Virus record (IMG/VR): IMGVR_UViG_2711768009_000005
DNA: 13,792 nt
Reading direction: 5' to 3' (one strand)
Source of the DNA: a virus
Lineage: Duplodnaviria > Heunggongvirae > Uroviricota > Caudoviricetes
Program-made: the position numbers
Part shown: piece by piece, positions 12,001 through 13,792 of the stretch
Layout: every line of letters begins with the position of its first letter
How positions within the stretch are numbered: position 1 is the first letter of the stretch

Positions 12001-13792
12001 GAGCGGCTCTACAAGTTCAGCTGGGGCCCACCAACATAGTCAGACTGGGCCCAGAACGAATAGCGGGAGTCAACCTACTGGAATGTTTCCGGCAGGGAGT
12101 ACTCAAGTTAGCGGGACTAATCAGGTTGGTATCAGTGGCTCATTAACCAGTGGCACCTCCCAATGGGTAGGTAAATCATCTTCAGAAGGAAACCATACAC
12201 ACTCACTGTCCGGCACAGCAGCATCTGCGGGTGCACACGCGCATACTGTCGGTATTGGTGCTCATACGCACTCTGTTGCGATTGGTTCACATGGACACAC
12301 CATCACCGTTAACGCTGCTGGTAACGCGGAAAACACCGTCAAAAACATCGCATTTAACTATATTGTGAGGCTCGCATAATGGCATTCAGAATGAGTGAAC
12401 AAGCACGGACCATAAAAATTTATAACCTGCTGGCCGGAACTAATGAATTTATTGGTGAAGGTGACGCATATATTCCGCCTCATACAGGTCTGCCTGCAAA
12501 CAGTACCGATATTGCACCGCCAGATATTCCGGCTGGTTTCGTGGCTGTTTTCAACAGTGATGAGTCATCGTGGCATCTCGTTGAAGATCATCGGGGTAAA
12601 ACGGTTTATGACGTGGCTTCCGGCGACGCGTTATTTATTTCTGAACTCGGCTCATTACCGGAAAATGTCACCTGGTTATCCCCGGAAGGGGAGTTTCAGA
12701 AGTGGAACGGCACAGCCTGGGTGAAGGATACGGAAGCAGAAAAACTGTTCCGGATCCGGGAGGCGGAAGAAACAAAAAACAGCCTGATGCAGGTAGCCAG
12801 TGAGCATATAGCGCCGCTTCAGGATGCTGTGGATCTGGAGATCGCAACGGAGAAAGAAACCTTGTTGCTGGAAGCTTGGAAAAAGTATCGGGTGTTGCTG
12901 AACCGTGTTGATACATCAACTGCACCGGATATTGAATGGCCAGTAGCACCTATAGGGTAAATTCGTAATGATTACCTAAATACGTTATTCTTTTGTTAAA
13001 AAAGTGATTTTGCTATAGGTAGGGAGTATGTTCTTGGATTAAGAATAAAAAATCGCCATGAAAGAGCTTCATGGCGAGTACATAAACGTACAAAATGTGA
13101 TGAAAGTAGAGTGGCGTAAGCCACTATATTAAGATATGACAATAGCGAAGAAAAGTAAATAACATTTTATGGACGTTTAATTGTTAATTATAAAAACTAG
13201 AGTGCCCGATATTGTTTATCTTGCTTTAAAATAATGTACTCAAACCAAATTTTTGAGCTAAAAGCTCAAATAATATAAATGCAATAATAATGTTTAATAA
13301 GACAATTAGCTTGCTTTGTATTTTCATTTCGGAATACTGTTAAGTAACTTTGATGACCCTAACAATAGATCGGAATTTTCTTAGAGTCAATGGTCACTGT
13401 TTTTGCTTGCAAAGCAAATGTTTTGGTGGTTATAAGTCGTCTTAATATAGTCACGCATGCAACTTGTTCCATGCGGAGATTAAAGATTGGAATATAACGC
13501 GAAGATGGAATTAAATTACATTTGCAATAATTAATTTATTATTACTCAATAATTACCGATATTATTATTGTAAATTAATCATTAGAATGCAAAAAGAAAT
13601 GTAACGGCAAAATAAGAGGACGATAGCTGAGAAAAAAGCGTGCTTTCCCAATCTGGGGCAAATCACGTCTGAATGACACCTGAAAACAGGTGGTAGCCTC
13701 AAGAAGGCTGGTGATGCTGCCAACTTACTGATTTAGTGTATGATGGTGTTTTTGAGGTGCTCCAGTGGCTTCTGTTTCTATCAGCTGTCCCT

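Follow-up and report, generated by a model that had tools for sequence, protein, structure and literature searches.

Phage morons are autonomous promoter-gene-terminator inserts in lambdoid phages, of which lambda lom and bor and HK97 gp15 are examples. Here we describe a putative unit of this kind in the virus record IMGVR_UViG_2711768009_000005, a stretch of 13,792 nucleotides that we call the window. The unit runs leftwards just behind the tail-fibre assembly gene tfa, and it contains a 33-codon open reading frame (ORF) that resembles the bacterial protein YncL. In E. coli K-12, YncL (b4598) is a 31-residue inner-membrane stress-response protein of a family of 30-31 residues, so similar in size to the 33 residues of the ORF. 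When YncL is produced, the membrane is depolarised to a sublethal degree, the phage-shock response is induced, the nucleoid condenses and cells become hypersensitive to pore-forming peptides (PMC12542507); YncL is also apparently a substrate of RseP in vivo (PMC10470546). Its inner-membrane location, stress induction and depolarisation are established for the K-12 protein only (PMC12542507, PMC10470546). The small RNA (sRNA) KilS, from the 3’ untranslated region (UTR) of kilR in the Rac prophage, has yncL among its targets by RNA interaction by ligation and sequencing, RIL-seq (PMC8175672), which is a precedent for a prophage RNA acting on the host yncL, the paralogue of the ORF.

We consider it probable that the window, where the tail-fibre genes of a lambda-like prophage end, carries a leftward moron-type unit whose gene specifies a divergent paralogue of YncL. 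Judged by its sequence, the ORF adds a new and divergent member, carried by a prophage and overlooked in annotation, to the YncL family. The parts of the proposed unit, and the module in which it lies, are given below in the direction of transcription. Divergence is reported relative to the lineage of loci L006 and L034, a group of module copies only ~79-80% identical to the window; L007 is of the sitABCD-type lineage.

13385-13390, minus strand: −35 hexamer TTGACT of a proposed sigma70-type promoter; the same in the L006/L034 and L007 lineages, TTGATT in 1 of 35 unique sequences
13362-13367, minus strand: −10 hexamer TATTGT; 17-nt spacer in all lineages; TATCGT in L006, a change at a non-consensus position
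13328-13355, minus strand: putative 5’ UTR of ~27 nt; 26% diverged in L006, no indels
13226-13327, minus strand: 33-codon ORF that codes for a small membrane protein of the YncL family, MKIQSKLIVLLNIIIAFILFELLAQKFGLSTLF; from conservation, the ratio of non-synonymous to synonymous change (pN/pS) and YncL homology
13128-13225, minus strand: proximal 3’ UTR, with no apparent constraint; in L006 it is 38% diverged and has 10 gap positions
13078-13127, minus strand: nearly invariant 3’ element; 4% diverged in L006, with flanks at 33-38%
13045-13077, minus strand: intrinsic terminator, stem 13077-13053 and U-tract 13052-13045 (U6); 9% diverged in L006
12961-~13538: conserved AT-rich module of ~580 bp, ~30% guanine plus cytosine (GC), always directly after the tfa stop codon; from BLAST and MAFFT, and composition

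The ORF opens with the ATG at 13327-13325 and closes with the TAA at 13228-13226. The peptide shares the general build of the YncL family, about 30 residues (here 33) and a single hydrophobic helix that has basic residues on either side: the hydrophobic span LIVLLNIIIAFILFELLA covers approximately residues 7-24, the basic residues are K2, K6 and K26, and there is a QKFG motif. We aligned the module across 11 annotated loci, 49 viral contigs (IMG/VR) and 27 metagenome contigs (BLAST, MAFFT), and the full-length copies, gathered from annotated genomes as well as from IMG/VR and metagenome contigs, number 84. In 83 of them the ORF is unbroken and does not vary in length. The sole exception is the metagenome contig ERZ809599 NODE-195 (L065, ~3120), where the start ATG reads ATA and the remainder of the ORF is intact.

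Most module copies are 95-100% identical to each other, and it is the more distant lineages that allow a test of selection. Relative to L006, the ORF has 17 nucleotide differences (10 synonymous, 7 non-synonymous) that result in 5 amino-acid changes, with no indel and no stop, and a pN/pS of 0.17. Relative to L007, there are 6 differences, a single amino-acid change and a pN/pS of 0.05. When the same substitutions are placed at random, so few replacements together with an intact ORF appear in 0.035% of the trials for L006 and in 1.3% for L007. The variable sites fall 8, 2 and 13 times on codon positions 1, 2 and 3, and the synonymous excess is largest in this frame. The substitution pattern across these lineages shows purifying selection on the ORF at the protein level. 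The ORF as a whole is 17% diverged in L006, and the flanks of the unit are 36% (12961-13044) and 33% (13391-13450) diverged, both with indels. The block from the −35 to the −10 hexamer is 10% diverged vs 26-33% in its own flanks. This footprint in L006, which spares the promoter block, the terminator and positions 13078-13127, agrees with a promoter-ORF-terminator model more closely than does the match of the hexamers by itself, but it is no proof that the promoter is used.

The rest of the module behaves differently from the ORF. Six of the eight other module ORFs with at least 20 codons, amongst them both ORFs for which phage records give a hypothetical protein, are broken by stops or frameshifts in at least one of the lineages L006, L007 and L009; the other two are still open, and the changes in them are almost all amino-acid replacements. 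We rejected as genes 12996-13142 (minus strand) and 13390-13497 (plus strand), both broken in L006, L007 or L009, and also 13359-13472 (minus strand), a hypothetical protein in phage PhiR70_1 (XSB43586.1), which stays open in none of these three lineages. The ORF at 13575-13742 (minus strand), equivalent to the hypothetical protein VUF53621.1 of phage ev099, spans the insertion site of an IS1 element in the window; this and the 13359-13472 hypothetical protein are probably both over-calls. The 24-codon ORF at 13058-13132 (plus strand) is open, but five of its six changes are non-synonymous and it lies inside the RNA-conserved block, and we do not regard it as coding. Within the 33-codon ORF itself, a terminator-like hairpin (13270-13252) loses two pairs in L006 through the codon change E21K, and we do not take it as a conserved structure.

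The resemblance to YncL comes from several comparisons. The only NCBIfam match of the ORF is NF000537, 'stress response membrane protein YncL' (E = 1.3e-5, 25.0 bits), and its residues 1-28 align with profile positions 1-28 of 30, so that the similarity is co-linear and full-length; the L006 variant reaches 23.5 bits. With BLASTP, the ORF and K-12 YncL, which reads MNVSSRTVVLINFFAAVGLFTLISMRFGWFI in the genome, share 11 of 28 identical residues (39%) and 18 of 28 positives (64%) without a gap. We also built a hidden Markov model from 21 chromosomal YncLs, themselves found with a profile to which the window peptide had contributed. Under that model the ORF scores 31.9 bits, vs a maximum of 19.7 bits amongst 40,000 composition- or segment-preserving shuffles. 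An exhaustive profile search finds 39 proteins; the sequences we read are nearly all enterobacterial and of YncL type, starting with M[NDE][VI]S[SG][RK], with E. coli, Enterobacter and Leclercia as named sources. The window type of peptide forms a separate cluster at 50% identity. The Pfam family PF28073 is precomputed on every YncL found and also on P0003, a frameshifted copy of the ORF, where these assignments came from a homologue search with a tandem-duplicated peptide as query. A direct Pfam scan of the ORF has no match, and K-12 YncL itself also gives zero matches in that Pfam set. PHROGs and PADLOC have no significant match for the ORF.

If these parts work together as proposed, RNA polymerase would start from the TTGACT-17-TATTGT promoter at about 13355 (position 13354-13356 as we infer it from the −10 hexamer), and a leftward mRNA of ~310 nt would be made in the lysogen, consisting of a short leader, the ORF, a 3’ UTR of ~180 nt and the terminator. 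The terminator at 13077-13045 would keep leftward transcription out of the tail genes, with a stop ~85 nt before the tfa stop codon. Translation of the ORF would be independent of a Shine-Dalgarno sequence, and the product is predicted to insert as a single-pass inner-membrane peptide. By analogy with YncL, the peptide probably alters membrane energetics or the stress state of the lysogen, which would make it a lysogenic-conversion function. Upstream, at 60-120 nt from the proposed promoter, a further block could be a regulatory site:

13451-13506, no strand assigned: second moderately conserved block, with the inverted repeat GCATG-N10-CATGC; 14% diverged in L006 vs 33% for 13391-13450

Several observations weigh against a leftward unit encoding a YncL paralogue. 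The promoter, TTGACT-17-TATTGT, has 9 of 12 consensus matches and is no better than chance sites, given that positions 12900-13792 contain 5 such sites vs 4.4 ± 1.9 in shuffles. There is no Shine-Dalgarno motif upstream of the start codon (...AACAGUAUUCCGAA-AUG), whereas K-12 yncL has AAGGUGG. In the sitABCD context and in a major facilitator superfamily (MFS) transporter context, leftward read-through from the cargo genes could instead supply the transcript. The conservation peaks in the 3’ UTR (the last ~80 nt of the transcript) and not in the ORF. The selection test has three lineages and ~23 substitutions in all, one metagenome contig has ATA as its start codon, and two run-assembly proteins (P0003 and P0005) are C-terminal frameshift variants; another one, P0004, is an N-terminal fusion. 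As to the family, the 25.0 bits stay below the curated NF000537 cut-off of 35 bits and place the ORF outside the equivalog boundary, where five chromosomal YncLs, divergent ones included, score 43-69 bits. The family signature of M[NDE][VI]S[SG][RK] followed by [RK][FY]xW reads MKIQSK and KFGL in the ORF, which has a Leu in place of the family Trp and lacks an MNVSS start. The ORF retains just S5 and the basic residue 6 of the N-terminal signature; Asn12, Ala16, Leu19 and Phe27 are in common with YncL. It is uncertain whether the peptide is functionally equivalent to YncL, because of the sub-cut-off score, the missing Trp and the missing MNVSS start. The low score, the absence of the Trp and the three extra C-terminal residues are probably also why the NCBI pipeline misses the ORF.

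The promoter hexamers, the 17-nt spacer, the 33-codon ORF and the terminator hairpin had all been proposed on the minus strand by the original prediction, and we find each of them exactly where it was placed. Its two caveats hold as well: the upstream sequence bears out the lack of a clear Shine-Dalgarno, and features of this kind do arise by chance here, as the promoter count and the presence of six ORFs of at least 33 codons in or overlapping the ~750-bp AT-rich stretch indicate. The terminator is the exception to these chance-level features (2 terminator-like sites vs 0.5 expected). The promoter hexamers and the ORF alone are no better than chance, and it is the comparative evidence that raises the unit above it. 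The comparison with related prophages, which had been suggested as a check, turns out synonymous-biased, with the ORF kept while the flanks diverge. Together with the 83 of 84 intact copies, the kinship with YncL and the spared promoter and terminator, it supports the proposal of a leftward unit that would encode a small membrane peptide.

Amongst the alternatives, the best surviving one, which we regard as somewhat unlikely, is that the product is mainly RNA. Positions 13127-13045 would then be an Hfq-type sRNA, from the 3’ UTR or from a promoter of its own, and the ORF would be secondary, or else the transcript would have a dual function. The 3’ element has a 5-bp stem-loop, GUGGC-UUAC-GCCAC (13124-13111), followed by a linker of ~33 nt, CUCUACUUUCAUCAYAUUUUGUACGUUUAUGUAC, and by the terminator with its stem of 10-11 bp, 5 of them GC pairs, and then UUUUUUAUUCUU. 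Positions 13078-13127, before the terminator, are the least diverged part of the module, at 4% in L006 vs the 17% of the ORF, and the fold of 13040-13225 has z = −5.5 vs shuffles. At three sites a one-sided substitution leaves the minus-strand RNA paired, as G.U or A-U, and for two of the three the plus strand would have an A.C mismatch. The top of the terminator stem has a G.U to A-U change in two lineages. We find no compensatory double change at any pair of the 3’ structure. On this strand, the Rfam matches are all to Hfq-dependent sRNAs (VrrA, MicC, Aar, Hrs12, RseX and Esr41) but none comes near its gathering score: VrrA has 23 bits vs a threshold of 50 (E = 0.048), MicC 22.8 vs 90, and Esr41 15.6 vs 102. 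We rejected the MicC resemblance (E = 0.19-0.91), for which the 5’ 'seed' part is not conserved in L006. A TATAAT hexamer at 13192-13187 (minus strand) would favor a separate promoter, but it lies in a poorly conserved stretch and has no acceptable −35. Using RNAduplex, complementarity of the 3’ element to the 5’ region of the unit itself and to the K-12 yncL translation start is no better than for shuffles.

The 3’ end of the module can also be compared with the 3’UTR-derived Hfq sRNAs CpxQ and KilS, which likewise have a stem-loop, a single-stranded, AU-rich linker and a U6-tailed terminator. It sits downstream of a small prophage ORF, as KilS does in the 3’ UTR of kilR. Unlike those sRNAs, it belongs to no Rfam family, and no processing site, Hfq binding or target has been identified for it. 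What an RNA-only model fails to explain is the codon-periodic, synonymous-biased substitutions of the ORF and its homology to YncL. Of the leftward non-coding RNA that the original prediction had named as its alternative, the purely non-coding form is disfavoured, and the form in which an RNA function is added to coding is possible, with the 3’ ~80 nt more conserved than the ORF. On top of the coding function, 13078-13127 could plausibly be the body of a 3’UTR-derived sRNA, or else a stability element. The stronger version of this idea, which we think unlikely, is a dual-function locus where a depolarising YncL-like peptide is combined with an Hfq-type sRNA from the 3’ ~80 nt that regulates host genes. 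The peptide could then be, for example, a dormancy, superinfection-exclusion or abortive-infection effector, and the locus would amount to a lysogenic-conversion cassette that unites a peptide with an sRNA and travels with one tfa class.

It is quite unlikely, in our view, that the ORF is a type I toxin or an abortive-infection peptide held in check by an antisense or divergent small RNA. The peptide is small, hydrophobic, of toxin-like size and on a mobile element, just as Hok, Ldr, TisB, Ibs, ShoB, ZorO and DinQ are short single-helix hydrophobic peptides on mobile elements; the lack of a Shine-Dalgarno with a long structured 3’ region is also seen in some type I toxin mRNAs, and production of YncL depolarises the membrane and lowers viability (PMC12542507). 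But the ORF has no sequence relationship to those toxins and no match to a toxin family in NCBIfam or Pfam, to a phage protein family in PHROGs or to a defence model in PADLOC, and we see neither an antisense or complementary RNA partner nor any conserved folding of the mRNA that would hide the start codon. On the plus strand, we find no conserved promoter or terminator across the ORF, in a search that an RNA without recognisable signals would escape; a single promoter-like site exists on that strand (13136-13165), and its −35 is missing from L006. There is no direct repeat able to give a trans-acting complementary RNA. The sole 25-nt inverted repeat (13110-13134 / 13440-13464) we rejected as a hok-like 5’-3’ fold-back or antitoxin, since only 11 nt are perfect, which is at the level of chance, and it is not conserved in L006. 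The papers on YncL considered here (PMC12542507, PMC8175672, PMC10470546) do not treat it as the toxin of a toxin-antitoxin pair. The type I toxin-like option of the original prediction is unsupported, given that no conserved antisense or divergent RNA partner and no toxin-family match are found. Finally, it is very unlikely that the ORF, promoter and terminator are accidents of AT-rich DNA conserved only by recent horizontal spread, as the chance rate of promoter-like sites, the several ORFs of similar length in the same 750 bp and the scant evolutionary information in copies that are 95-100% identical might suggest, when the L006 flanks are 33-38% diverged with indels and the ORF has no indel or stop and mostly synonymous changes, most other module ORFs are broken in at least one other lineage, and the YncL profile score is reached by 0 of 40,000 shuffles.

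Within a lambda-like prophage, the window forms the tail end, and the unit has the following surroundings.

9218-12379: long side-tail-fibre gene
12379-12960: tfa, tail-fibre assembly, 193 residues
After tfa: AT-rich stretch of ~750 bp, 28-37% GC by composition profile
13710-13792: left end of IS1, which begins GGTGATGCTGCCAACTTACTGAT

We find the module behind tfa in at least three prophage contexts: with AraC-regulator cargo at att-lambda, with sitABCD cargo, and in a Qin-type arrangement tfaQ...ydfJ. The L006/L034 lineage forms a fourth group. The right edge of the module is at ~13506 in the sitABCD-type prophages and at ~13538 in the Qin-type and other prophages. In L006 (3515-3614) and in L009-L011 (~3520-3600), this edge adjoins a fragment of ~70-100 bp homologous to the 3’ end of tfa, in direct orientation, which is found in the Qin-type and ~80%-identical contexts and which the Prokaryotic Genome Annotation Pipeline (PGAP) calls a pseudogene. 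In those contexts, the module is bracketed by tfa 3’-end repeats, in what looks like a recombination scar of module movement. Amongst complete E. coli genomes, 828 of 5,426 (~15%) carry the module, often more than once and in up to 4 copies per genome. None of the 60 E. coli matches listed has a gene annotated over it, and the 33-codon ORF is also uncalled in the records of the isolated phages mEp332, ev099 and PhiR70_1. Two scans of one-genome-per-species contigs find no copy, so that the module is seemingly restricted to E. coli strains that do not serve as the species representative. Further copies come from scans of viral and metagenome contigs, all of them within the three lineages already seen, and a full-text literature search finds no publication with the peptide or DNA string.

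Complete E. coli genomes arranged like the window have the prophage at att-lambda, beside ybhB and bioA, with an AraC-family regulator beyond IS1. In mEp332, ev099 and PhiR70_1 there is no IS1, and the AT-rich spacer continues for ~750 bp more up to the AraC-family regulator. IS1 therefore splits an AT-rich spacer of ~1.5 kb between tfa and the regulator, and many E. coli genomes have this same insertion in common. In loci L001 and L002 (RefSeq NZ_CP029164 and NZ_CP013025), one locus-tag number is missing between tfa (RS20695 / RS03045) and the IS1 transposase (RS20685 / RS03035), a hint that an earlier annotation had a gene in the AT-rich stretch which was dropped later. On the plus strand, 12800-12920 matches Rfam IS009 above the gathering threshold (127 bits, E = 7.6e-31); because the match is wholly within the tfa coding sequence, we regard it here as tfa coding DNA. 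The window also includes masked runs of N (519-975, 1627-2152 and 10301-10623; 1306 bases in all), which account for the near-zero GC values of the composition profile and also break up the ORFs of the tape measure and the tail fibre.

Annotation regularly passes over small membrane proteins, and here such a gap would concern a module present in ~15% of complete E. coli genomes and in lambdoid phages. A phage-borne YncL paralogue would mean that temperate phages have captured a stress peptide of this type as cargo. The ORF offers a way into YncL function and is a candidate lysogenic-conversion or phage-defence factor, and a second, separate lead, towards a prophage sRNA, comes from the ultra-conserved 3’ end. 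The advance is incremental and not conceptual, since both the protein family and the kind of phage cargo to which it adds were known before.

Compared with YncL, the ORF is co-linear from Met1 and has in common with it the pattern M-x-[VI]-x-S-[KR]-x-[VI]-V-L-[LI]-N ... A ... L-F-x-L ... [KR]-F-G. It differs in its start (MKIQSK vs M[ND]VSS[RK] in YncL) and in being three residues longer at the C-terminus. The ORF lies in a prophage module behind tfa, whereas yncL is at the chromosomal patD-yncL-ortT locus, and the promoter and 3’ UTR of the ORF are unrelated to those of K-12 yncL. Compared with the known morons, the predicted product is far smaller than moron proteins, and the module is tightly tied to one tfa type instead of being at varied insertion sites. 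Like the morons, the proposed unit has one small gene, accompanied by a promoter-like site of its own and by an intrinsic terminator, in a module of ~30% GC next to tail genes of 47-62% GC. Also like them, it is at the end of the late operon in the opposite orientation, and it is present in only some of the related phages.

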